From NCBI GenBank assembly GCA_029941275.1, contig JAPYQK010000001.1, positions 19,205 through 54,511 of the forward strand: a stretch of DNA of 35,307 nucleotides, given 5' to 3'. The notes below the pieces were generated by a model. That model was not told where the DNA came from. It saw nothing but the letters and a program-made list of their open reading frames with translations, and did no database searches. The stretch comes from Longimicrobiales bacterium (GTDB taxonomy: Bacteria > Gemmatimonadota > Gemmatimonadetes > Longimicrobiales > Gaopeijiaceae). Positions 12,779-33,733 of the stretch are shown in pieces (the stretch's first letter is position 1; the number at the start of each line of letters is the position of its first letter). The translations under genes and the position numbers were made by a program.

Positions 12779-14959
12779 ATGAAGACTCGGAGAGTGGGGC
12801 TGCTGGCCACCGCCACGTTGCTGACCGGTGCGGTCGCTTGGGTCACCCCACTGGCTGGTCAGGCTCCCCAGCGAGATGAGATCGCCGGCGTCGTGATGAG
12901 CGGCAGCGGGCCGGAAGAAGGGGTATGGGTCATCGCCGAGACGGACGATCTGGCCACACGCTTCGTAAAGACGGTGGTCACCGGGGACGGCGGGCGCTTC
13001 CTGATTCCAGAGCTCCCCGAAGCCAACTACAGGGTCTGGGTCCGCGGATACGGCCTCGTCGACTCGCCGAAGATCGGCGCGACACCAGGGACCGACATCG
13101 AGCTCCAGGCGACCGTTGCCGCTACCGAGGCCGAAGCCGCCCAGGTGTATCCGGCCAACTACTGGTACTCACTGATCGAGCCGCCTGATGCGAGCGAATT
13201 CCCCGGCACCGGGCCTGATGGCAACGGGATCTCCACGAACTTGCAGACGCAGGGCCAGTGGGTGGACATCCAGAAGCAGGGTTGCATGCTGTGCCACCAG
13301 CTCGGCACCCAGATCGTCCGCGAAATCGAGAACATCGACGAATTCGACTCGACGATCGCCGCCTGGGATTACCGGGTTCAGATGGGGCAGCGGGGCGGGC
13401 AGATGAGCAACGTCATGAACCGATTCGGCCGCGAACGGGGCCTTCAGATGTTCGCCGACTGGAGCGACCGGATCGCATCGGGTGCGCTTCCACCAAGGCC
13501 GCCCCGCCCCGCCGGCGTCGAGCGCAACGTCGTCACCACGATGTGGGAGTGGGGCACCGAGGTCGACTACATCCACGACGAGATCGCGTCCGACAAGCGC
13601 GACCCGACCGTGAACGCCAACGGACCGGTTTACGGCGTCAATATCTCGAACGACGAGCTCGCCATTCTCGACCCTGTGACGCACGTGGCGACCAACCTCG
13701 AGATCCCGTTGCGGGCCGACCCGGCGACCGTGCGGCCGATGATTGCGCGGTCGATGGCGGTGCCATCGCGGTTCTACGGAGACAGGCTTGTCTGGAACGA
13801 CCCGGCCAACCCGCATAACCCCATGATGGACCAAGAAGGGCGTGTCTGGATGACGTCGGGCATCCGGGGTCGGCAGAACCCCGCGTGGTGCCAGGAAGGG
13901 TCTACCAACAAGTACGCGAGCTACTACCCGATGGCGAGCAGTGGGCGGTCCGCGGTCTACTACGATCCGACGACCGAGGAGTTCGTCATGGTCGACACCT
14001 GTTTCGGCACACACCACCTGCAGTTCGCCGAGGATGATGACAACACGCTCTTTTTCAGCGGCGGCGGCCAGGTCGTCGGGTGGATCGACACCGACGTATT
14101 CGACGAAACAGGCGATGAGCAGTTCTCGCAGGGCTGGTGTCCTACCGTCATCGACACCAACGGCGACGGCAGGATCACAAAGCCATGGAACGAGCCTGGG
14201 AGTAGAGACGACGGGAACTTCGACCCGAGCCGGGACACGCGTATAGTCGCGGGCAGCTATGGCCTCGTGGCCGACCCCGAGGTGGGCACGGCGGTCTGGC
14301 TCTCCTCGGCGCAGTACCCGGGCAGGGTCGTGCGCTTGGACACCGGCGACAACCCGCCGGCGACCTGCATCACCGAAATGTATGAGGTGCCCTCAGTGCT
14401 CGACCCCAGCGTGCCCGAGGAGGACACCGGATTCGGCCCGCGCGGCATCGACATCGACCGCAACGGAGTGGTGTGGACTGCGCTGTCGGGCAGCAGCCAC
14501 TTCGCCTCGTTCGACCGTAAGAAGTGCGACGCGAACGGGCCGGAGATCCTCGACGGGCGGCACTGCGTCGAGGGATGGACGCTCTATCCGACACCGGGCC
14601 CGTCGATCCAGAACACGGATCCACCGCTGCGAGCCGACTACCATTACTACAACTGGGTGGACCAGCACAATACGCTGGGTCTGGGCAACAACATCCCCAT
14701 CGCCAACGGATCGAACTCCGATGCGTTACTGGCGCTCGACCCAGAAACGGGCGAGTGGGTCGTCCTGCGCGTGCCGTATCCGCGAGGATTCTTCAGCCGC
14801 GGGCTCGACGGTCGTATCGACGACCCGGACGGCGGGTGGAAGGGTCGCGGCGTGTGGGCGACCTACGGCGCGGCGGCCACGTGGCACATCGAGGGCGGCA
14901 GGGGAGTCAAACCTGGGATAATCAAGTTCCAGGTCCGGACTGACCCGCTGGCCAACTAG
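12779..14959 (+). CDS. secreted CarboxypepD_reg-domain + single CxxCH + beta-propeller-like protein, function unknown
   Basis: 726-aa ORF with AAGGGGA 8 nt upstream. Signal MKTRRVGLLATATLLTGAVAWVTPLAGQ. GVVMSGSG...GGRFLIPELPEANYRVWVRGYG is a CarboxypepD_reg domain. CMLCH at 13283-13297. Repeated blade-like segments follow (DQEGRVWMTS, GPRGIDIDRNGVVWTA, LLALDPETGEWVV), reminiscent of Vgb-lyase-type propellers. Confidence 0.75.
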   Translation: MKTRRVGLLATATLLTGAVAWVTPLAGQAPQRDEIAGVVMSGSGPEEGVWVIAETDDLATRFVKTVVTGDGGRFLIPELPEANYRVWVRGYGLVDSPKIGATPGTDIELQATVAATEAEAAQVYPANYWYSLIEPPDASEFPGTGPDGNGISTNLQTQGQWVDIQKQGCMLCHQLGTQIVREIENIDEFDSTIAAWDYRVQMGQRGGQMSNVMNRFGRERGLQMFADWSDRIASGALPPRPPRPAGVERNVVTTMWEWGTEVDYIHDEIASDKRDPTVNANGPVYGVNISNDELAILDPVTHVATNLEIPLRADPATVRPMIARSMAVPSRFYGDRLVWNDPANPHNPMMDQEGRVWMTSGIRGRQNPAWCQEGSTNKYASYYPMASSGRSAVYYDPTTEEFVMVDTCFGTHHLQFAEDDDNTLFFSGGGQVVGWIDTDVFDETGDEQFSQGWCPTVIDTNGDGRITKPWNEPGSRDDGNFDPSRDTRIVAGSYGLVADPEVGTAVWLSSAQYPGRVVRLDTGDNPPATCITEMYEVPSVLDPSVPEEDTGFGPRGIDIDRNGVVWTALSGSSHFASFDRKKCDANGPEILDGRHCVEGWTLYPTPGPSIQNTDPPLRADYHYYNWVDQHNTLGLGNNIPIANGSNSDALLALDPETGEWVVLRVPYPRGFFSRGLDGRIDDPDGGWKGRGVWATYGAAATWHIEGGRGVKPGIIKFQVRTDPLAN

Positions 14960-15126
14960 CGGCAACTGTTTCCAGCAACCGAAGACGCTGCCCGGTGGGA
15001 TGGCGCCCCGCAATCTTTGACGGTAGTGGGTCAGTCTCGTACCACAACCCCGCCCATCGCACATTTGACGCAACTGGCAGGAACTGGGTATTCTCCCCTA
15101 AGCCTGTCTCCGGAGGAGTAAACACG

Positions 15127-16512
15127 ATGCCCCGTCCAATCATCGAGTGGAAATCCGTCTTCGCGATCGCGCTGGCGTTTGCAGCTATCGCATTTACCGC
15201 ACCCGTCCCGCTCACCGCCCAGGAGTCCGACGCGGTGACCTTCACCAGGGATATCGCCCCGATTCTGCAGCGCAGCTGTCAGCAGTGCCATCGACCGGGT
15301 GGTGTGGCCCCCATGCCACTCGTCAGCTACGAGGACGTGGCGCCCCACGCCATGGCCATGATGCGGCGCACCAGTATTCGTGATCGCCAAGGCACGATGC
15401 CGCCGTGGTACGTCGAGAAGGACATCGGCATTCAGGAGTACAAGGACGATCCGTCGCTGAACGACGAAGAGGTCGCGGCCATCGCCGCGTGGGCTCGAAG
15501 CGGAGCGCCAGAGGGCGATCGCGCGGACATGCCGCCTGCCCTGGTCTTCGAGGAGACCGTCGGTTGGAGGCTCGGAGAGCCGGACTTGATCGTGTCGACG
15601 GAGGACATCGTCGTGGACGCCGACTCGCCGGACTGGTGGGGCTCGCTGAACAACATTCCGATCGATTTGGCGGAAGACCGGTACGTCGCCTCCATGGAGA
15701 TTCGGGAGATCAACGACGTCAAGGATAGTGGAAGACTCGACCGGGAGACCGTCGGCGGACTGTACGTCTTCCATCACATGCTCTTTAGTACGGCCTCTCG
15801 GGGCAGTCGCCCCACCACGTGGCCCGTTCATGAAGTCGGCCGCAACCCGGACATCTTCGATCCGGGCGCCGGTCAGCTCCTCGCGGCAGGTTCGGTGCTC
15901 GTTCCGAGCTCGGTGCACCTGCACTCCAACGGCCTCGACACACGTGCTCGACTGGAGGTCGGGTTCCGGTTCCATCCCGTGGGTTATGAGCCGAAGTACC
16001 GCCAAGCCCAGATGGTGATCGCAAACGGCGTCGACATCGACATCAAGCCGGAAGAAGCCAATCAGCAGCTCCACGCCTACGCGGTGCTGCAGCAGCCCAC
16101 CAAGATCGTCACGTTCGAGCCGCATTTGCACGCGCCCGGACAACGGATGTGCCTGGAGGCGATCTGGGGCTTCAACGTGGAAACGCTCGCCTGCACGGGT
16201 TATGACCACAATTGGGTGCGTGGCTACACCTTTGCCGACAACCACCAGCCACTGCTGCCCGAGGGCACGGTCCTTCACATCATCGGCTACATGGACAACA
16301 CGGGTGCGAACCGCAACATCCCCGACCCGAGAAACTGGCAAGGTTCCGGCAACCGCTCCGTGGCCAACATGTTCCTTGACCTCGGCATGAGGCTCACGCT
16401 CACCGACGAGCAGTTCGAGCAGGAAATGGCGGATCGGCGTGAGATTCTCGACCTGGGGGTGAACGATCACGTGATCGGATGTCCGCTCTGTATGGTGATA
16501 CCGGGGAATTAG
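15127..16512 (+). CDS. exported mono-haem cytochrome c domain fused to PHM/DBH-like (copper type II monooxygenase-like) domains
   Basis: Start set at ATG 15127, with GGAGGAG 8 nt upstream. Signal MPRPIIEWKSVFAIALAFAAIAFTAPVPLTAQ. RDIAPILQRSCQQCHRPGG...MPPW (CxxCH at 15277-15291). FHHMLF (15772-15780), HLH (15916-15924), RFHP, EPHLHAPG (16123-16131) and NMFLDLGM resemble the CuH/CuM ligand order of PHM. Confidence 0.7.
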   Translation: MPRPIIEWKSVFAIALAFAAIAFTAPVPLTAQESDAVTFTRDIAPILQRSCQQCHRPGGVAPMPLVSYEDVAPHAMAMMRRTSIRDRQGTMPPWYVEKDIGIQEYKDDPSLNDEEVAAIAAWARSGAPEGDRADMPPALVFEETVGWRLGEPDLIVSTEDIVVDADSPDWWGSLNNIPIDLAEDRYVASMEIREINDVKDSGRLDRETVGGLYVFHHMLFSTASRGSRPTTWPVHEVGRNPDIFDPGAGQLLAAGSVLVPSSVHLHSNGLDTRARLEVGFRFHPVGYEPKYRQAQMVIANGVDIDIKPEEANQQLHAYAVLQQPTKIVTFEPHLHAPGQRMCLEAIWGFNVETLACTGYDHNWVRGYTFADNHQPLLPEGTVLHIIGYMDNTGANRNIPDPRNWQGSGNRSVANMFLDLGMRLTLTDEQFEQEMADRREILDLGVNDHVIGCPLCMVIPGN

Positions 16513-16513
16513 G

Positions 16514-17506
16514 ATGAGGCGACATGGCTCTCGGAGACGGAATATGAGACACGGGCAAGGAACCCTGGGCGGAGTAGTGTGGGCCGGGTTGGTAGCAATG
16601 GCCGTAGTGATGCCCAGCCAGCAGGCGAGCGCCCAGCTCGCGTACCAGACAGGCCAGAACATCTCACCGGCATTCGAGGGGTGGGAGGCGAACGAGGACG
16701 GTTCGTTCAGCATGGTGTTCGGGTACATGAACCGGAACTGGCTAGAGCAGCTCGACGTTCCAGTAGGGGCGGAGAACAACATCTCGCCTGGGCCCGCGGA
16801 TCAAGGCCAGCCCACACACTTTCTTCAGCGCCGCAACCGGTACGTGTTCAAGGTCCGCGTGCCTGCGGACTTCGGCGATCAAGAGTTGGTGTGGACGCTG
16901 ACGACACAAGGAATCACGCAAGCGGCCTACGGGACCCTCAAGTTGGACTACAAACTCGACTACAACGTCATCGCCTCGGAGACAGGGGCGCTCTCCATCG
17001 GTATCAGCACCGAGGAGTCCAGAGCCAACAGGCCGCCGACTGTCTCCGTGGTCGGCGACCCGGTGCGAACGACCCAAGTCGGAGAGCAAGTCACTTTGGT
17101 GGCCCGTGTCATCGACGACGGTCTCCCAAGTGTGCGCCGCCGGCCTGCACGCCCCCCGAGCGACGAAACGCCCAGGTTGTCCGCAACCCAGTTGCGTCCG
17201 CCGTCACGGTTCACCGTCGAAAAAGTCATCGGATTGCACCTGTCGTGGTTCGTCATGCGGGGCGACAGTGACGTCATGTTCGATCCTCCGCAGATCAAGA
17301 CCTGGGAGGATACGAGGACCGGCGCCAACTCACCGTGGTCACCGCTCTTCTCCATGCCCGAGCCACCTGAGAACGGAGAGTGGACGGTGCAAGTCACCTT
17401 CGATGAGCCGGGTACTTATGTGCTCCGCGGCCGCGCGGACGATGGCGGATTGTACGGCGACACGGACGTGAGGATCACGGTGACGCCAGCCACAGCGTTC
17501 GAGTAG
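16514..17506 (+). CDS. secreted protein of unknown function, abutting the cyt c-monooxygenase-like gene
   Basis: 330-aa ORF. ATG 16514 lies 1 nt after the upstream TAG (TAGGATG). Signal GGVVWAGLVAMAVVMPSQQASAQ. The C-terminal EWTVQVTFDEPGTYVLRGRADDGGLYGDTDVRITV looks like an Ig/PKD-like beta-sandwich. No named family recognised. Confidence 0.7.
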   Translation: MRRHGSRRRNMRHGQGTLGGVVWAGLVAMAVVMPSQQASAQLAYQTGQNISPAFEGWEANEDGSFSMVFGYMNRNWLEQLDVPVGAENNISPGPADQGQPTHFLQRRNRYVFKVRVPADFGDQELVWTLTTQGITQAAYGTLKLDYKLDYNVIASETGALSIGISTEESRANRPPTVSVVGDPVRTTQVGEQVTLVARVIDDGLPSVRRRPARPPSDETPRLSATQLRPPSRFTVEKVIGLHLSWFVMRGDSDVMFDPPQIKTWEDTRTGANSPWSPLFSMPEPPENGEWTVQVTFDEPGTYVLRGRADDGGLYGDTDVRITVTPATAFE

Positions 17507-21447: not shown

Positions 21448-23973
21448 ATGAGAACATTGAGCGCCGCGCTGGCAACGTTCGGACTGTTGTTCGTGCTCGT
21501 TGGGCAGACCGCCGATGCAGGGGTCGCACAACCGGAAGTGCTGAGGTCGACCGTGTCCGTGTCGGCCACCAGCATCCTCGCCGAAGCATTAGCGGCCATC
21601 CCTGTTGAAGCACGGTCGGAGATCATTCCGAAAGCACTACCGCACGTCCCTGCCGAAGGACTCTTGGACGTCCCTGCCGAAGCACTGTCGGAAGTGATCC
21701 AGGAGTATTGCGTCTCCTGCCACAACCGTGTCCGCCTCGAGGGGAATTTGTCGTTGACGGAGTTCGATGTCGAACGGGCCCCTGAGATGGCGGAAACCGC
21801 CGAGAAGATGATCCGAAAGCTCAGGGCCGGCATGATGCCTCCGGCGGGAAGGCCGCGGCCGCCCGCCGACACCTTGATGGCGCTCGTCGAGGATCTCGAA
21901 AGACGTATCGACGAAGCGGCGGCAGGAAATCCCAATCCGGGGTCCAGAACGTTCCAACGCCTTACACGGGCCGAGTATGCTGCGGCCGTTCGTGACCTTC
22001 TGGGACTCGAAATCGACGTCGCCGCTTACCTCCCACTCGACACCAAGAGCGCCAACTTCGACAACATCGCGGACGTCCAAGCCCCGTCGGCCACGGTCAT
22101 GGAAGGGTACATGCGGGCCGCCGGCTACGTGAGCCGGATCGCCTTGGGGGACGCTGAGGCCGAGGCCCAATCGACCCGGTATCGGCTCCCGCGCACCGCG
22201 TCACAGAAGGAGCGCGTCGAAGGGGCTCCTTTTGGAACGCGTGGCGGCGTGTCCATCATCCACAACTTCCCGGCCGACGGTAAGTACGTCTTCCACATTC
22301 AGCCTTACCCGGCGGTGGAAGGCGAGGTCTTCGGGCGAACGTTCGGGACGTCGCAGATCGAGGTTTCGATCGACGGCGCGCGGGTCGCGCTCATGACGGT
22401 GGACCGGTGGATGCGTGAGTCCGAGCCCACCGGCTTGAACATGCGAACGGATTCTATCTACGTGACCGCCGGCCCCAAGCGGGTGACCGCGGCATTCGTC
22501 CGCCAGTTCGAGGGTGAAGTGGACGACTTGATCCGGCCCATCGATCACACCCTGGCCGACGGCCAGATCGGTGTCGGGTACGGCATTACATCCATCCAGC
22601 ACCTGCAGCGACTGACGGTCCTCGGACCGTATGAGGTCACGGGAGTCTCGGACACGCCGACCCGACGTCGAGTCTTCACTTGCCGTCCGACAGCACCGGA
22701 CGAGGCTCGGCCGTGTGCCGAGAGCATCATCGCCCGCTTGGGCGCTCAGGCTTACCGGAGACCCCTCGACGAGAACGACCTCAGGGGGCTCATGCAGTTC
22801 TACGATGACAGCGCTGTTGAAGATGGCTTCGAGGGCGGTGTCCGGATGGCCCTTCAGGCGACCCTAGCGAGTCCCCACTTCCTGTTCCGAATGGAGGAGC
22901 AGCCGATCGGTGCGTTCCCAGGCGAGGTGCACCGAATCAGCGACGTGGACTTGGCGTCCCGGCTTTCCTTCTTCATCTGGGGTACCCCGCCTGACCAGGA
23001 GTTGACCGAGGTGGCGGGCCGCGGGGAGCTTTCGGCCCCCGGTGAAGTCGGGCGTCAAGCACGACGGATGTTGGCCGACCCCCGGGCAGAGGAGGCTCTG
23101 GCCACGCGCTTCGGAGGACAGTGGCTTCGTCTCCAGGATCTCGAAGAACTCCACCCTGACGCGCTGACGTTCCCCTACTTCGACGACACACTAGCCGAGT
23201 CCATGCGACGTGAGACCGAACAGCTGTTTTCGTATCTCATCCGCGAGGACCGCAGTGTTCTCGAACTGTTGACGGCCGACTACACCTTCGTGAACGAGCG
23301 CCTCGCCCGGCACTACGGAATCCCAGGCGTCGTCGGAGAGGGCTTTCAAAGAGTCGTGTATCCGGACGACCGTCGGCGGGGCCTGCTGGGTCACGGCAGT
23401 ATTCTCGCTATGACGTCTCACGCCGATCGGACGTCGCCGGTGCTGCGTGGCAAGTGGGTGTTGGAAGTGCTGCTCGGTACACCGCCACCGCCGCCGCCGC
23501 CCGACGTCCCCGCGTTCGAAGAGACGGACGAAGCGAATGAGGGGCGCTCACTGACTGTGCGCGAGCGTATGGAGCAACATCGCTCGAACCCAGCTTGTAT
23601 GGCTTGCCATGTGGTCATCGATCCCATCGGGCTCGCGTTGGAAAACTTCGACGTAACGGGAGCATGGCGCATCCGGGACGAGGGGAACCTGATCGATCCA
23701 GTTGGTGAGCTGTACGACGGGACCATCTTGAGAGGCCCGTCCGATTTGAGGGCGGCGTTGTTGAGCCGTCCAGAAGTTTTCTACCGGATTTTCACGACGA
23801 ACCTCATGGCCTACGGATTGGGCCGGCGGGTGGAGTATTTCGACATGCCGACGATTCGTGCGATCACGAGAGACGCGGCAGAGAACGCATACAACTTTTC
23901 TTCGTTCGTTTTGGGGGTCGTGAATAGCCCGGCCTTCCAGACGACTCGGGTGGACGTGGTCACCCCCGCCTGA
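21448..23973 (+). CDS. DUF1592-family protein (planctomycete PSCyt3/PSD-type; DUF1587/1592/1595/1588/1585 architecture)
   Basis: 841-aa ORF with a signal peptide. VIQEYCVSCHNRVRLEGNLSL (CxxCH at 21709-21723), GTPPPPPPPDVPAFEE and NPACMACHVVIDPIGLALENFD are hallmark segments of this family. It is followed by a DUF1552 gene, as is usual. Confidence 0.85.
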   Translation: MRTLSAALATFGLLFVLVGQTADAGVAQPEVLRSTVSVSATSILAEALAAIPVEARSEIIPKALPHVPAEGLLDVPAEALSEVIQEYCVSCHNRVRLEGNLSLTEFDVERAPEMAETAEKMIRKLRAGMMPPAGRPRPPADTLMALVEDLERRIDEAAAGNPNPGSRTFQRLTRAEYAAAVRDLLGLEIDVAAYLPLDTKSANFDNIADVQAPSATVMEGYMRAAGYVSRIALGDAEAEAQSTRYRLPRTASQKERVEGAPFGTRGGVSIIHNFPADGKYVFHIQPYPAVEGEVFGRTFGTSQIEVSIDGARVALMTVDRWMRESEPTGLNMRTDSIYVTAGPKRVTAAFVRQFEGEVDDLIRPIDHTLADGQIGVGYGITSIQHLQRLTVLGPYEVTGVSDTPTRRRVFTCRPTAPDEARPCAESIIARLGAQAYRRPLDENDLRGLMQFYDDSAVEDGFEGGVRMALQATLASPHFLFRMEEQPIGAFPGEVHRISDVDLASRLSFFIWGTPPDQELTEVAGRGELSAPGEVGRQARRMLADPRAEEALATRFGGQWLRLQDLEELHPDALTFPYFDDTLAESMRRETEQLFSYLIREDRSVLELLTADYTFVNERLARHYGIPGVVGEGFQRVVYPDDRRRGLLGHGSILAMTSHADRTSPVLRGKWVLEVLLGTPPPPPPPDVPAFEETDEANEGRSLTVRERMEQHRSNPACMACHVVIDPIGLALENFDVTGAWRIRDEGNLIDPVGELYDGTILRGPSDLRAALLSRPEVFYRIFTTNLMAYGLGRRVEYFDMPTIRAITRDAAENAYNFSSFVLGVVNSPAFQTTRVDVVTPA

Positions 23974-23998: not shown

Positions 23999-25384
23999 AT
24001 GAAGTTCATCACAGGAAAACACATCTCCCGGCGGACCGCGCTTCGCGGCATGGGCGCTTCTCTCGGCCTTCCGCTTCTCGATGCCATGATTCCGGCAGGA
24101 CGTTTGTGGGCGTCGACGCCCACAGCGGCTGATGTGGACGCCACCCGCTTGGTATGTATAGAGCAGGTCCACGGAGCAGCCGGGTGTAACGACCTGGGAG
24201 CCTCGATGAACCTCTGGTCGCCCAAAGCCACCGGGAGTGACTTCGACCTGTCGCCTACGAGCTTGAAATCGTTGGAGCCCTTCCGTGACTATCTGACCAT
24301 CATCAGTGACACGGACTCGCGTATGGCTGACGCCTTCTCCCCTGAGGAGATCGGCGGAGACCACTTCCGGACCGCCGCGGTGTTCCTCACGCAGGCGCAT
24401 CCGAAGCAGACGGAAGGGTCGGACGTTTTCGTGGGCACGTCGTTCGACCAGATCTTCGTAAAGCACCTCAGCAACGGCACGCCGATTCCGTCTGTGCAGC
24501 TGTCCATCGAGAACGTGGATCAGGCGGGTGGCTGTGCCTACGGCTATGCATGCGCCTACACGGACACGATTAGTTGGGCCTCTCCGAGCGAGCCGCTCCC
24601 GATGGTCCGCGATCCCCGCGCTGTTTTCGAGATGTTGTTTGGTGCCGGGGGTACTCCTGAGCAGCGCGCGAAGCGGCGGCAGGCCGATCGCAGCATCCTA
24701 GACTGGATGCTGGAGGAGATTTCCGCACTGCAGCGGACCCTGGGGCCGGCCGATCGTCACCGCCTCGACCAGTACACCTCGAACATCCGTGAGCTGGAGG
24801 AGCGCATCCGGCGGATCGAAGAGCAGAACGCGAGTGGTGAAGAAAGGGAGATCCCTGAGGCACCGGTGGGCGTTCCGGACGACTTTGCCGAGCATATGGA
24901 GTTGATGTTCGACCTCCAGGTTCTGGCTTTCATGTCGGACACCACCCGCGTGTTCTCGTTGAAGATGGGTCGGGACGCGTCCCCGAGAGTGTTCGCGGAG
25001 AGCGGCGTCACCACGCCATTCCACTCTTCGTCGCACCACGGCGGCCGCGAGAGTCGCGTGCTCGACTTCGCAGCGATCAACTCCTATCACGTCGGAATGC
25101 TGCCCTACTTCCTGGAGAAGTTGAAGAACACGATGGAGGGCGATTCGAACCTGCTGGACAAGACTATGATCGTGTATGGATCCGCCATGGCGGACAGCAA
25201 CCTGCACAACCACATCCGGTGCCCGCTATTCCTGGTGGGTGGCGCTAACGGCAAACTCGCCGGCGGCCAGCACGTCCGGGCTCCCATGGGTACACCCATG
25301 GCGAACGTCATGCTCGACATGCTGCACAAGCTCGATGTGGATATCGATTCGTTCGGTAACAGCACCGGCACATTCACCATCTGA
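23999..25384 (+). CDS. DUF1552 domain protein with twin-arginine signal
   Basis: 461-aa ORF. MKFITGKHISRRTALRGMGASLGLPLLDAM is the canonical DUF1552 Tat N-terminus. FHSSSHHGG motif. GAGG 9 nt upstream; 25 nt after the DUF1592 stop. Confidence 0.85.
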   Translation: MKFITGKHISRRTALRGMGASLGLPLLDAMIPAGRLWASTPTAADVDATRLVCIEQVHGAAGCNDLGASMNLWSPKATGSDFDLSPTSLKSLEPFRDYLTIISDTDSRMADAFSPEEIGGDHFRTAAVFLTQAHPKQTEGSDVFVGTSFDQIFVKHLSNGTPIPSVQLSIENVDQAGGCAYGYACAYTDTISWASPSEPLPMVRDPRAVFEMLFGAGGTPEQRAKRRQADRSILDWMLEEISALQRTLGPADRHRLDQYTSNIRELEERIRRIEEQNASGEEREIPEAPVGVPDDFAEHMELMFDLQVLAFMSDTTRVFSLKMGRDASPRVFAESGVTTPFHSSSHHGGRESRVLDFAAINSYHVGMLPYFLEKLKNTMEGDSNLLDKTMIVYGSAMADSNLHNHIRCPLFLVGGANGKLAGGQHVRAPMGTPMANVMLDMLHKLDVDIDSFGNSTGTFTI

Positions 25385-25394
25385 GGAGCGCGAC

Positions 25395-27170
25395 ATGTCG
25401 GTAGCAACAAGAGAGACCGGACTTCGGAAGGTGTCGATCGCGATGCTCGCCCTTTTGGTGCTCGCCGGGGCCACCCCAGCTGAGTCACCCGTCGCTGACG
25501 CGGCCCAACGAGGGGACCTCGAAGCAGTCCGCGCGCTGCTTCAACAAGGAGCGGATCCTAATGCCGCCCAAGCTGATGGCCTCACCGGGCTACACTGGGC
25601 GGCCCTGAATGGCGGCGATGGGATCGCCGAGATTCTGCTTTACGCCGGTGCGGCGGCGAGTCCAGTCACGCGAGTGGGTGGTTATACCCCGCTACACCTA
25701 GCCAGTCAAAGCGGACACGGTGCAGTCGTGCTTACACTGCTGGAGGGCGGAGCTAACGCCGACAAGTACACCACCACCGGCGTCACAGCCCTGCACTTCG
25801 CCGCCCAGTCCGACGCGGCCGATGCCATCCGTGCGCTGGTCGAGCACGGTGCGGACGTCAACGCGCGCGACGCCTTCTCGAATAGAACGCCACTGATGTT
25901 CGCGTCGCATCGTGGTGCCCTTGAGGCGACGCGTGCGCTGGTTTTCGCCGATGCGGATCTCACCGCCACCACCAACGTGAAGGACTACGTCGAGATCGTG
26001 GCCGCAAACACAGCCGAGCAAGCGCAGAGGGCCAGGATCATCGCAGCGGCCGAAGAGCCCGACCCGGATGCAGAACCCCAGAGGCCCCGCACGCCACGGC
26101 TACCGTGCCTCGAGGAGGACGGCCCGAAGATCATGTCCTCCACCGAGCAGATCGGAACACAAGGTGGTTTCGCCGCCCTGCATTTCGCCGCACGGGAAGG
26201 GCACATCGAAGCGGCTCGCCTCCTGGTGGAATCCGGAGCCGATATCGATCAAGTCACGGAAGGCGATAAATCGACCGCCCTCCTGGTTGCGGTGATCAAC
26301 GGCAATTACGACTTGGCGCGCGAACTCCTCGACGCCGACGCCGATCCCAACATGCTCAGTGACGACGGGGCGGGCCCGCTGTTCGCCACCCTCAACATCG
26401 AGTGGTCGCTGCGAACCTGGTATCCACAACCCCAGGCTTTTCGCCAGCAGGAGACCTCGTACTTACAACTGATGCAGTTGCTGCTCGACGCTGGAGCGGA
26501 CGTGAACGCCCGCGCCTCGTCGCATATCTGGTACTCGGCGTACAACGCCGGTCGGATGGGTGTGGACTTCACCGGGGCGACGCCGTTCTGGCGGGCCGCC
26601 TACGCCGCTGACGTCGCCGCCATGCGGTTGCTCGTGGCCAACGGCGCCGATCCCGACATCTGGACGCAGAATTTGGTGTGTAACCGTGAGCCCGTCGATC
26701 CGGACGTGCCAGACAACCCAGAGAACGATGAGCCGGACCCGGCGGATCCTTCTGGTCTGGAAGCTGTCCCGCACGGGGCACCGGCGGTCCACGCACTTCA
26801 CGCGGCTACAGGAGTGGGCTTCGGTACTTCCCGCGTCGCGCAGACGCACCGGCACGTGCCCGACGGTTGGCTACCCGCCGTGAAGTACCTGATCGAGGAG
26901 ATTGGCGTCGATCCGAACTTGCGTGACAAGGACGGCTTGACGGCCCTCCACAACGCTGCCGCGAGGGGTGACAACGAAACGATTCTCTACTTGGTGGAGC
27001 AAGGCGCGGACGTGACCTTGATCGGCCGCCGGGGCCAGACCGTGGCCGACTTGGCGAACAGCCCCGAACAAAGGGCCCAGCCACATCCAGAGACCATCGC
27101 GCTTCTGGAAAAGTTGGGCTCGGAGAATAGTCACAAGTGCCGGTCTTGCGGCGTGGGAGCGCCCGATTAA
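25395..27170 (+). CDS. exported ankyrin-repeat protein
   Basis: Start set at ATG 25395; GAGGAG at 25383-25388 overlaps the DUF1552 stop. Signal KVSIAMLALLVLAGATPAES. Multiple ANK units (GLTGLHWAALNG, YTPLHLASQSGH, VTALHFAAQS, FAALHFAAREGH, GLTALHNAAARGD) each followed by LL..GAD.N. C-terminal HKCRSCG. Confidence 0.85.
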   Translation: MSVATRETGLRKVSIAMLALLVLAGATPAESPVADAAQRGDLEAVRALLQQGADPNAAQADGLTGLHWAALNGGDGIAEILLYAGAAASPVTRVGGYTPLHLASQSGHGAVVLTLLEGGANADKYTTTGVTALHFAAQSDAADAIRALVEHGADVNARDAFSNRTPLMFASHRGALEATRALVFADADLTATTNVKDYVEIVAANTAEQAQRARIIAAAEEPDPDAEPQRPRTPRLPCLEEDGPKIMSSTEQIGTQGGFAALHFAAREGHIEAARLLVESGADIDQVTEGDKSTALLVAVINGNYDLARELLDADADPNMLSDDGAGPLFATLNIEWSLRTWYPQPQAFRQQETSYLQLMQLLLDAGADVNARASSHIWYSAYNAGRMGVDFTGATPFWRAAYAADVAAMRLLVANGADPDIWTQNLVCNREPVDPDVPDNPENDEPDPADPSGLEAVPHGAPAVHALHAATGVGFGTSRVAQTHRHVPDGWLPAVKYLIEEIGVDPNLRDKDGLTALHNAAARGDNETILYLVEQGADVTLIGRRGQTVADLANSPEQRAQPHPETIALLEKLGSENSHKCRSCGVGAPD

Positions 27171-32272: not shown

Positions 32273-33733
32273 TCAGGCCAAGACGCCCCGCACCACCTCC
32301 CCAGCAACATCGGTCAGTCGGAAATCCCGGCCTTGGAATTGGTATGTGAGCTTGGTGTGGTCGACGCCGAGCAAGTGAAGAACAGTCGCGTGTAAGTCGT
32401 GTACGTGCACGGGGTTACGAACAATGTTGTACGAAAAGTCGTCAGTCTCTCCGTAGGACATACCGGGCTGCACCCCACCGCCGGCCATCCAGATCGTGAA
32501 GCAACGCGGATGGTGGTCGCGTCCGTAGACCTCTTCGGTGAACCGGCCTTGGCAGTAGACGCTCCGCCCGAACTCACCACCCCACACAACCAGCGTGTCG
32601 TCGAGTAGACCCCGCTCCTTCAAGTCCGTGACCAGCGCGGCCTGAGGCTGGTCGACGTCGCGAGCCTGGTTGCGGATGCCGCTCGGGAGCCGGGTGTGTT
32701 GGTCCCACCCCCTGTGGAAGAGCTGTATGAAACGCACGTCCCGCTCGGCCAGCCGGCGGGCAAGCAGGCAGTTTCGGGCAAAGGATCCAGGCCTTCTGGA
32801 ATCCGGACCGTACCGCTCGAACGTACTATCCGGCTCGTCCGACAAATCGGTCAGCTCTGGCACCGAAGTCTGCATACGGTAGGCCATTTCGTACTGGGCG
32901 ATGCGCGTGCTCGTCTCGGGATCTCCGAAATCGTCACGGGTCTGCTGGTTGAGCGTCGCCAAGTCGTCCAGGAAGCGGCGGCGTGTGTTCTCGTCTACGC
33001 CGGGAGGGTTCGACAAGAAAAGCACTGGGTCGCCGGTCGGGAGGAACTTCACACCCTGATGTTCGGTCGGGAGGAATCCGCTGCCCCACAGCCGGTCGTA
33101 AAGCGGCTGCCCGCCGTTACCCGAGCCGATGGAGACCATCGCGACGAAAGTCGGCAGATCTTGGTTCATACTGCCGAGCCCGTACGAGAGCCACGCGCCG
33201 ATGCTGGGCCGTCCCGCGAGCTGCGCGCCAGTCTGGAAAAACGTGATGCCCGGGTCGTGGTTGATAGCCTCCGTGTGCATCGACTTGATGAAGCAGAGGT
33301 CGTCGGCGATGGCCGCGGTGTAGGGCATCAACTCGCTGATCCACGCCTGCGATTGGCCGTACTGGCTGAATTCGTAGACCGACGGGACAATGGGCAGGTT
33401 CTGCTGGGCCGCCGTCATAGTGGTCAGGCGCTGATCACCGCGCACCGATGGAGGTAAGTCGGTCCCGGACAACCGGGCGAGGCTCGGCTTGTAGTCGAAC
33501 AATTCGTGCTGGGATGGCGCACCCGACTGGAACAGATAAATGACGCGTTTGGCTTTTGGGGCGAAGTGAGGAAGACCGGGAAGGCCGGGAGCCTCCTGCG
33601 GCCTCGCCAGCGCCTGGGCACCGAGATCCTCGTTGAACAACGTGGCCAGCGCAGCCACACCCACACCTGTGCTGGCCATCTCGAGAAAATGCCGGCGAGT
33701 GAGAAGCCACTCGTAGTCGAGAATTGGATCCAT
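32273..33733 (-). CDS. DUF1501 domain protein (sulfatase/alkaline-phosphatase-superfamily-like) with twin-arginine signal
   Basis: 486-aa ORF with AAGGGA 8 nt upstream. [33 protein letters not shown] is the canonical DUF1501 Tat N-terminus. C-terminal GGEFGR...DHHP and [13 protein letters not shown] segments. Confidence 0.88.

Follow-up and report, generated by a model that had tools for sequence, protein, structure and literature searches.

The window considered here is a stretch of 35,307 nucleotides (nt) with a G+C content of 62% from a Longimicrobiales bacterium of the phylum Gemmatimonadota (GenBank assembly GCA_029941275.1, contig JAPYQK010000001.1, positions 19,205 to 54,511 of the forward strand). 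Its subject is a single forward-strand gene, window:15127-16512, that joins a predicted exported haem c domain to a two-domain core resembling the copper enzymes peptidylglycine alpha-hydroxylating monooxygenase (PHM) and dopamine beta-hydroxylase (DBH). The open reading frame (ORF) is intact and has 461 codons, from the ATG at 15127 to a TAG at 16510-16512. Homologue alignments begin at the Met encoded at 15127 and not at an upstream GTG at 14995. A Shine-Dalgarno sequence precedes the start codon (Table 1), and a weak sigma-70-like site at 15065-15094 is a consensus match only. The ORF and its motifs had been located in an earlier note made from the sequence alone, and a script check of the coordinates confirmed them. 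A trivial offset concerns FHHM, which is present, although the range 15772-15780 given for it covers HHM and the F lies 3 nt upstream.

The N-terminus has an n-region with R3 and K9, a hydrophobic segment at residues 10-29 and a conserved cleavage-type site at A31-Q32, and its predicted local distance difference test (pLDDT) score is low. These features are consistent with a Sec signal, and export to the periplasm is predicted. In the haem c domain that follows, CQQCH at 15277-15291 provides C51, C54 and H55, which form a CxxCH haem-attachment motif with its proximal His. M91 (15397-15399) opens an MPPW motif; it is the candidate distal Met and would be the second haem ligand. Conservation was counted in an alignment of 36 sequences with 28-88% identity, in which C51, C54, H55 and M91-P92-P93 occur in every sequence. 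The Pfam model Cytochrome_CBB3 (PF13442) scores 23.1 bits in the window protein, below its gathering threshold (GA) of 27; it matches 35 of the 36 relatives at E<=1 (best 4.1e-9) and exceeds the GA in two of them, P0168 (34.1 bits) and P0188 (37.1 bits). A three-helix class-I core (helices 39-50, 68-83 and 113-124) is modelled in this region. The mono-haem module of CQQCH plus MPPW that the earlier note described is thus well founded. Every full-length relative keeps this module, so the haem is integral to the enzyme rather than an accessory found here and there.

Fold and predicted ligands of the copper core

Two AlphaFold2 (AF2) models were built. The first used a shallow alignment of 21 sequences at >=63% identity and reached a pLDDT of 57; the second used the 36-sequence alignment, which extends down to 28% identity, and reached a pLDDT of 84.5 with a predicted template modelling score (pTM) of 0.81. 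When the second model was compared with the PDB by Foldseek, the top 31 matches were all DBH or PHM, each with a probability of 1.00, E-values from 4.8e-9 to about 3e-6 and 300-375 aligned columns. Human DBH (4zel) was the best match (E 4.8e-9, 375 columns). The rat PHM structures had E-values of 6e-9 to 3e-6 over 300-350 columns and template modelling (TM) scores of at most 0.59 normalised to PHM, a modest global value of the kind expected for a two-domain hinge protein. The next match, a tandem carbohydrate-binding module (CBM), is unrelated (E 1.8e-4, TM ~0.2). Even with the weak first model, the top 21 PDB matches were rat PHM. Sequence identity to PHM in the Foldseek alignments is ~10-14%. 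The PHM/DBH-like fold that had been proposed from the sequence is therefore borne out by structural comparison. Assignment to the PNGase F branch of the superfamily was considered and rejected: 7zgn_A matches with E 8.2e-4 and TM 0.21-0.23, and the copper ligand sets are present in the window protein.

Alignment of the family with rat PHM by hhalign gave E 7e-5 over 235 columns, and the most divergent 14-member subgroup aligned with it at a probability of 81% and E 1.2e-5 over 249 columns. The rat PHM core used as reference is identical to 4e4z_A at 312/312 residues, with a numbering offset of +44. Both hhalign alignments pair the CuH ligands H107, H108 and H172 of PHM with H216, H217 and H264 of the window protein, and the CuM ligands H242, H244 and M314 with H333, H335 and M415; PHM M109 is paired with M218. 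H216, H217, H264 and H333 are conserved in 36/36 sequences, H335 in 35/36 and M415 in 34/36. These residues agree with the pattern sought for copper type II (noncoupled binuclear) monooxygenases, namely an HH pair with a third His roughly 50-65 residues further on for CuH and HxH with a Met roughly 70-80 residues further on for CuM. Local contexts can be set side by side as VHHML/FHHML, RVHTHHLG/EPHLHAPG and SSDEMCN/SVANMFL (PHM first). Conservation in 34-36 of the 36 sequences indicates that the His/Met pattern is not due to chance, and we regard the two predicted copper sites as highly probable.

The earlier note had listed more ligands than these. Its core set (H216/H217/H264 and H333/H335/M415) is retained, whereas H266, H283 and M421 are not. 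The protein has two HLH motifs, of which the second (16123-16131) contains H333 and H335 and the first (15916-15924) contains H264 and H266. H266 is conserved in 30/36 sequences, the His of RFHP (H283) in 20/36 and the Met of LGM (M421) in 9/36; judged by conservation, these three residues fall outside the predicted sites and the ligands had been over-listed. The whole protein has six Cys: two for the haem, C342 and C356, and C452 and C455. C342 (16150-16152) and C356 (16192-16194) are each present in 25/36 sequences and lie on neighbouring strands (338-347 and 350-358), so a disulfide between them is probable. The C-terminal CPLC pair mentioned in the earlier note (C452-P-L-C455, 16480-16491) is present, but it lies outside the conserved sites and marks one subclade. 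It is invariant among relatives with >=63% identity and falls in the low-confidence tail of the model. Its sequence could represent a thiol-redox or Cu(I)-handling motif; being found in only 16-17 of the 36 sequences, it lies outside the core mechanism.

The relationship to PHM is remote. The hmmscan check suggested in the earlier note gave no match to Cu2_monooxygen (PF01082) or Cu2_monoox_C (PF03712) at E<=1 in the window protein, nor in its 20 closest relatives, and NCBIfam had no match to the window protein. A phmmer search of the PDB returned spurious matches to ankyrin designs, and the PDB sequences reached by family hidden Markov models (HMMs) were limited to hydrazine synthase alpha and PccH, in both cases at the haem-motif regions. 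Because the family searches end at such haem-motif neighbours, HMM-versus-sequence methods are blind to the PHM relationship. More diverse members narrow the gap: Cu2_monoox_C matches 8 of the 36 at E<=1 and Cu2_monooxygen matches 5. The Cu2_monoox_C GA of 23 is reached by P0181 (23.6 bits) and P0266 (23.0 bits), both of them distant relatives; P0196 has sub-threshold matches to both Cu2 domains, and the best Cu2_monooxygen score among the relatives is 17 bits versus a GA of 30. These bridging relatives were found at E 1e-43 to 1e-61. Homology is described as remote because the Cu2 models match at or near threshold in distant relatives only, and by these profile scores membership in the group of PHM, DBH and tyramine beta-monooxygenase (TBM) is at superfamily level and not at Pfam-family level. 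Homology to PHM and DBH as such is, in our assessment, close to certain.

Partner gene, family and genomic surroundings

Beyond what the earlier note had read from the gene, the analysis found a downstream partner gene, natural fusions of the enzyme with that partner, and a very large family. Only 1 nt separates the stop codon of the enzyme gene from the partner ORF, for which the public gene call uses an alternative start, ATG 16544 (M11). In 74 of 83 non-redundant loci from four phyla, the gene immediately downstream, in the same orientation, encodes a partner homologue; the homologue lies elsewhere within 7 kb in five loci, is absent in three, and is undecidable at one contig end. L033, L048 and L059 each have a copy of the enzyme gene but lack a partner within 7 kb, and the partner is found ~1-6 kb upstream and not directly downstream at L046, L054, L071 and L076. 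These deviating placements suggest paralogues or rearrangements. The partner has no significant match in Pfam, NCBIfam or the PDB. It gives only weak PKD-, YtkA- and Ig-like signals, of which the PKD/Ig-like ones fall in its C-terminal half, and there is no conserved Cys/His motif. It is conserved along its whole length, has no conserved C-terminal Gly and varies at its C-terminus. The partner family has at least 7,814 members, a size comparable to that of the enzyme family, and all members that carry a name are called 'hypothetical protein'.

Natural fusions with the partner occur in three domain orders. The enzyme precedes the partner in P0147 and P0156, and the partner precedes the enzyme in P0152 (L087:545-2590). 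In P0146 (L086:5001-7094), the order is partner N-domain, haem domain, copper core and partner C-domain; here one gene on a 4.09-Mb contig encodes the whole fusion, and no separate partner gene adjoins it. Such Rosetta-stone fusions in three orders speak for enzyme and partner as one functional unit. The L086 fusion gene lies directly downstream of a gene for a PQQ-type beta-propeller protein. Internal homology between the partner and the enzyme was considered and rejected, since the hhalign match lies in columns contributed by fusion proteins in the alignment.

A word-indexed search found >5,860 relatives of the enzyme. When the representatives of 50%-identity clusters were searched exhaustively, 11,386 clusters matched at E<=1e-3; a cutoff of E<=1e-10 left 5,251 of them, and 462 remained at E<=1e-30. 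At least 573 GTDB species genomes contain a close orthologue (>=60% identity), and they represent four phyla: Gemmatimonadota (Longimicrobiales, Palauibacter), Acidobacteriota (Vicinamibacteria), Gammaproteobacteria (Pseudohongiella/Pseudomonadales) and Bacteroidota (Chryseolinea). The closest relatives come from metagenome-assembled genomes of Gemmatimonadota and Acidobacteriota. Public names are limited to 'cytochrome c', 'mono/diheme cytochrome c family protein' and 'hypothetical protein', and the curated libraries Pfam and NCBIfam have no model for a haem c-PHM-like family; the fold may already be covered by automatic superfamily signatures elsewhere. A literature search that excluded most subscription papers turned up no account of bacterial proteins that are PHM-like or haem c fusions. 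The statement in the earlier note that no bacterial protein of this architecture has been characterised agrees with that search and with the public names. Some relatives duplicate the whole haem c and two-copper module in tandem. P0168 (1064 aa) adds EF-hand Ca-binding motifs, and P0188 (1251 aa) adds AhpC-TSA peroxiredoxin and thioredoxin-like domains. The AhpC-TSA fusion would fit chemistry that involves O2/H2O2, and the presence of a peroxiredoxin may be a hint that H2O2 arises as a by-product or serves as a co-substrate.

Table 1. Features of the haem c-copper gene, its partner and other genes of the window (positions count from the first nucleotide of the window)
Feature	Position	Strand	Basis
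Shine-Dalgarno sequence GGAGGAG, 8 nt 5' of the start codon	15112..15118	+	sequence reading
Coding sequence, haem c / PHM-DBH-like two-copper fusion, 461 aa	15127..16512	+	ORF, homologues, model
Predicted signal peptide, residues 1-31, cleavage-type site between ...LTA and QES	15127..15219	+	sequence features, A31/Q32 conserved
Mono-haem class-I-type cytochrome c domain, residues ~36-135	15232..15531	+	motifs, Cytochrome_CBB3, model
CuH-type beta-sandwich domain, residues ~145-290; predicted ligands H216, H217 (15772-15777), H264 (15916-15918)	15559..15996	+	hhalign, conservation, Foldseek
CuM-type beta-sandwich domain, residues ~291-425; predicted ligands H333, H335 (16123-16131), M415 (16369-16371)	15997..16401	+	hhalign, conservation
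C-terminal helix (residues 427-440) and tail with CPLC (16480-16491)	16402..16509	+	model, alignment
Partner gene, exported ~320-330-aa two-domain beta-rich protein, no known family	16514..17506	+	adjacency, fusions
Upstream 726-aa exported protein with one CMLCH haem c motif	12779..14959	+	loose association
PSCyt/PSD multidomain protein (DUF1592, DUF1588, DUF1585, DUF1595, DUF1587, cytochrome c-like N-terminus)	21448..23973	+	Planctomycete-type pair
DUF1552 (HXXSHH) protein, second of the Planctomycete-type pair	23999..25384	+	family match
DUF1501 protein	32273..33733	-	family match

No gene besides the partner is consistently linked to the enzyme gene across the 83 loci. Synteny beyond it is confined to lineages and comprises infB-truB-pnp, a fused MeaB/methylmalonyl-CoA-mutase-type gene and an EamA transporter gene (Gammaproteobacteria). 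In Pseudohongiella-like Gammaproteobacteria the cassette stands just downstream of the housekeeping infB-truB-pnp genes, as scored at L029, L033, L041-L047, L051, L067-L069, L074-L077 and L083-L085. The 726-aa protein encoded directly upstream of the enzyme gene has a sub-threshold CarboxypepD_reg-like N-terminal domain and no match above threshold in Pfam, NCBIfam or the PDB. A 51%-identical homologue lies near the cassette, on the opposite strand, in 4/85 loci (L001-L003, L013); with linkage in these four loci only, this haem protein was rejected as a core component and is probably outside the core system.

The window encodes at least three different exported proteins with haem c motifs. Its second 461-aa ORF (23999-25384) was considered as a paralogue of the enzyme and rejected, because it encodes an unrelated DUF1552 protein. 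A 664-aa protein consisting largely of ankyrin repeats, which is unusual for bacteria, is encoded at 25176-27170 (+); its listed start overlaps the DUF1552 gene by ~200 nt, and the true start is probably later. On the reverse strand, a 212-aa ORF at 11783-12421 matches only the C-terminal part of TatC (profile positions 146-203 of 208) and may be a truncated or divergent TatC or have a miscalled start.

Proposed mechanism and competing explanations

The evidence from fold, ligands and haem module leads us to favour, with rather better than even confidence, a periplasmic noncoupled two-copper monooxygenase of the PHM/DBH/TBM type that is fed by its fused haem c and not by ascorbate. The protein would be exported by the Sec route and would acquire haem at C51-x-x-C54-H55, with M91 as the distal ligand; the motifs are observed and the chemistry would follow from them. 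The haem would then receive one electron, either from the cytochrome c pool of the periplasm or from the respiratory chain, and the electron would pass within the molecule from the haem to CuH (H216, H217, H264) and onward across the interdomain cleft to CuM (H333, H335, M415). By analogy with the chemistry of the PHM/DBH/TBM family, each copper would be reduced by one electron, O2 would be activated at CuM, and a C-H bond of a substrate other than peptidyl-glycine would be hydroxylated. The enzyme would act as a complex with the ~330-aa beta-sandwich partner, whose gene would be co-transcribed in this proposal. Having no evident cofactor, the partner probably serves in substrate binding, presentation or scaffolding. 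That the tethered haem c is the electron entry point and takes the place of ascorbate is, from the architecture and by analogy with cytochrome c-fused NirK and the haem-domain donors of lytic polysaccharide monooxygenases, likely; that the enzyme genuinely hydroxylates a substrate, a point again argued from related enzymes, has slightly more for it than against it.

Several observations weigh against this reading. The copper domains of the window protein escape both Pfam and NCBIfam, PHM is out of reach of HMM-versus-sequence searches of the PDB, and the hhalign probabilities are moderate (63-81%). The residues R240, N316 and Y318, which we take from the literature on 1OPM to be the peptidyl-glycine anchors of PHM, are not kept. 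R240 corresponds to E331 (E/Q in 31/36), N316 to L417 (mostly hydrophobic) and Y318 to L419 (L/W in 26/36). The disulfide framework of PHM, which has 10 Cys, is absent from a protein with six Cys only. Clustering of the gene neighbourhoods at the 83 loci gave no clue to substrate or pathway beyond the partner, and the direction of electron flow and the type of reaction are inferred by analogy. Since neither the three anchors nor the disulfide framework is conserved, the protein was rejected as a PHM orthologue, that is, as a peptide-amidating enzyme; the lack of the peptidyl-glycine-binding residues indicates that its substrate differs from that of PHM.

The same fold and metal sites could instead belong to a haem c-fed copper oxidase or reductase of a small inorganic molecule, acting on O2 (to H2O2 or H2O), nitrite or the like, which we judge unlikely. 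Three-domain NirK likewise consists of a copper enzyme with a tethered haem c, and going by the titles of entries 3mib, 3mll and 3mlj, the CuM of PHM binds nitrite, azide and CO in crystals; the lack of linked organic-substrate pathway genes and the peroxiredoxin fusion in one relative point the same way. However, a His2Met CuM facing a His3 CuH across a cleft is a monooxygenase in every characterised case, denitrification and respiratory genes are not linked, and the fusions and the cofactor-less beta-sandwich partner suggest a macromolecular or organic ligand. The partner raises a different question, namely whether it, or a peptide that it presents, is itself the substrate of a protein- or peptide-modifying enzyme. 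PHM acts on peptides, and the partner is both co-encoded and exported, but the full-length conservation of the partner, its variable C-termini without a conserved Gly and the absence of the PHM anchors from the enzyme make this quite improbable, and fusions in three orders, including insertion between the partner domains, fit a subunit better than a substrate.

Catalysis is predicted, whereas conservation of the metal ligands is observed, and a non-catalytic role on a PHM-like scaffold, as an electron carrier or as a periplasmic copper buffer or chaperone, would also account for conserved ligands; the CPLC of one subclade could bind Cu(I). We consider this very unlikely, because both ligand sets and the haem are strictly conserved across four phyla at 28-88% identity, a pattern usual for catalytic sites, half of the family lacks CPLC, and known copper chaperones have quite different folds. 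The public annotation 'cytochrome c' and the missing Pfam copper-domain matches would fit an ordinary cytochrome c to which an unrelated beta-rich part has been added, its His/Met pattern being coincidental. That explanation is effectively refuted by the Foldseek probability of 1.00 to PHM/DBH over both domains, by the six ligands that hhalign pairs and that are conserved in 34-36/36 sequences, and by the relatives that reach the Cu2_monoox_C threshold. The haem c-fed monooxygenase remains the preferred reading. In its widest form, for which we see the chances as evenly balanced, it describes a very widespread, hitherto unrecognised two-component periplasmic system of a haem c-Cu2 monooxygenase and an orphan beta-sandwich subunit. 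This would be the first prokaryotic, ascorbate-independent branch of PHM/DBH; it would draw electrons from the respiratory cytochrome c pool and hydroxylate a substrate that is common in the environment, in Gemmatimonadota, Acidobacteriota, Pseudohongiella-type Gammaproteobacteria and Bacteroidota of soils and the sea, with the window protein as its minimal form.

Comparison with known systems

PHM, DBH and TBM are textbook examples of eukaryotic, ascorbate-dependent enzymes; in animals, members of this group produce noradrenaline and amidated peptide hormones. The route of electrons into CuH and then over ~11 A of solvent to CuM is a matter of continuing debate. If the proposed reading is true, a bacterial version with a tethered haem c would offer a natural, expressible model for this electron transfer, because reduction and oxidation of the haem can be followed optically. 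The breadth of the family (at least 573 species genomes, >11,000 clusters and >=60% identity across phyla) would imply unrecognised periplasmic oxygenation in heterotrophs that are abundant in soil and ocean. The orphan partner adds a second uncharacterised fold and function, and correct annotation would re-label thousands of database entries. A known catalytic scaffold would thereby gain a new electron-input module, a new partner subunit and a new domain of life.

The PHM core of rat PAM (1PHM/1OPM/1SDW) consists of two beta-sandwich domains with the same ligand sets in the same order as in the window protein, in similar contexts (VHHM/FHHM, HTH..G/HLH..G and DEM/ANM). Unlike PHM, the window protein is bacterial and predicted to be periplasmic, has an N-terminal c-type cytochrome and a partner protein, lacks R240/N316/Y318 and the five disulfides, and presumably does not use ascorbate as its reductant. 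Within the DBH/TBM group (4ZEL), DBH shares with it an extra N-terminal domain before the copper core and a C-terminal helical segment after it. The extra domain of DBH is a DOMON beta-sandwich, whereas that of the window protein is a haem c domain; DBH itself is a eukaryotic, ascorbate-dependent, glycosylated, disulfide-linked oligomer.

Other copper enzymes provide parallels for the electron supply. Three-domain NirK (e.g., from Ralstonia pickettii) is a periplasmic copper enzyme with a built-in donor in the form of a fused mono-haem cytochrome c. This design principle is like that of the window protein, but the NirK copper fold is unrelated (a cupredoxin trimer with type 1 and type 2 (T1/T2) Cu) and its reaction is different. 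The donors of lytic polysaccharide monooxygenases (LPMOs), namely the cytochrome domain of cellobiose dehydrogenase, CYBDOM and bacterial cytochrome c modules, deliver single electrons outside the cytoplasm to a mononuclear copper site. They differ in being separate polypeptides, mostly with b-type haem, that serve a histidine brace fold. The bacterial multidomain relatives P0188 and P0168 carry the same haem-Cu module at 27-30% identity over ~400 residues, and their modules match Pfam Cu2_monoox_C below threshold. They combine a tandem pair of modules with thiol-redox or Ca-binding domains, whereas the window protein, as the minimal form, has one module and a partner encoded separately.

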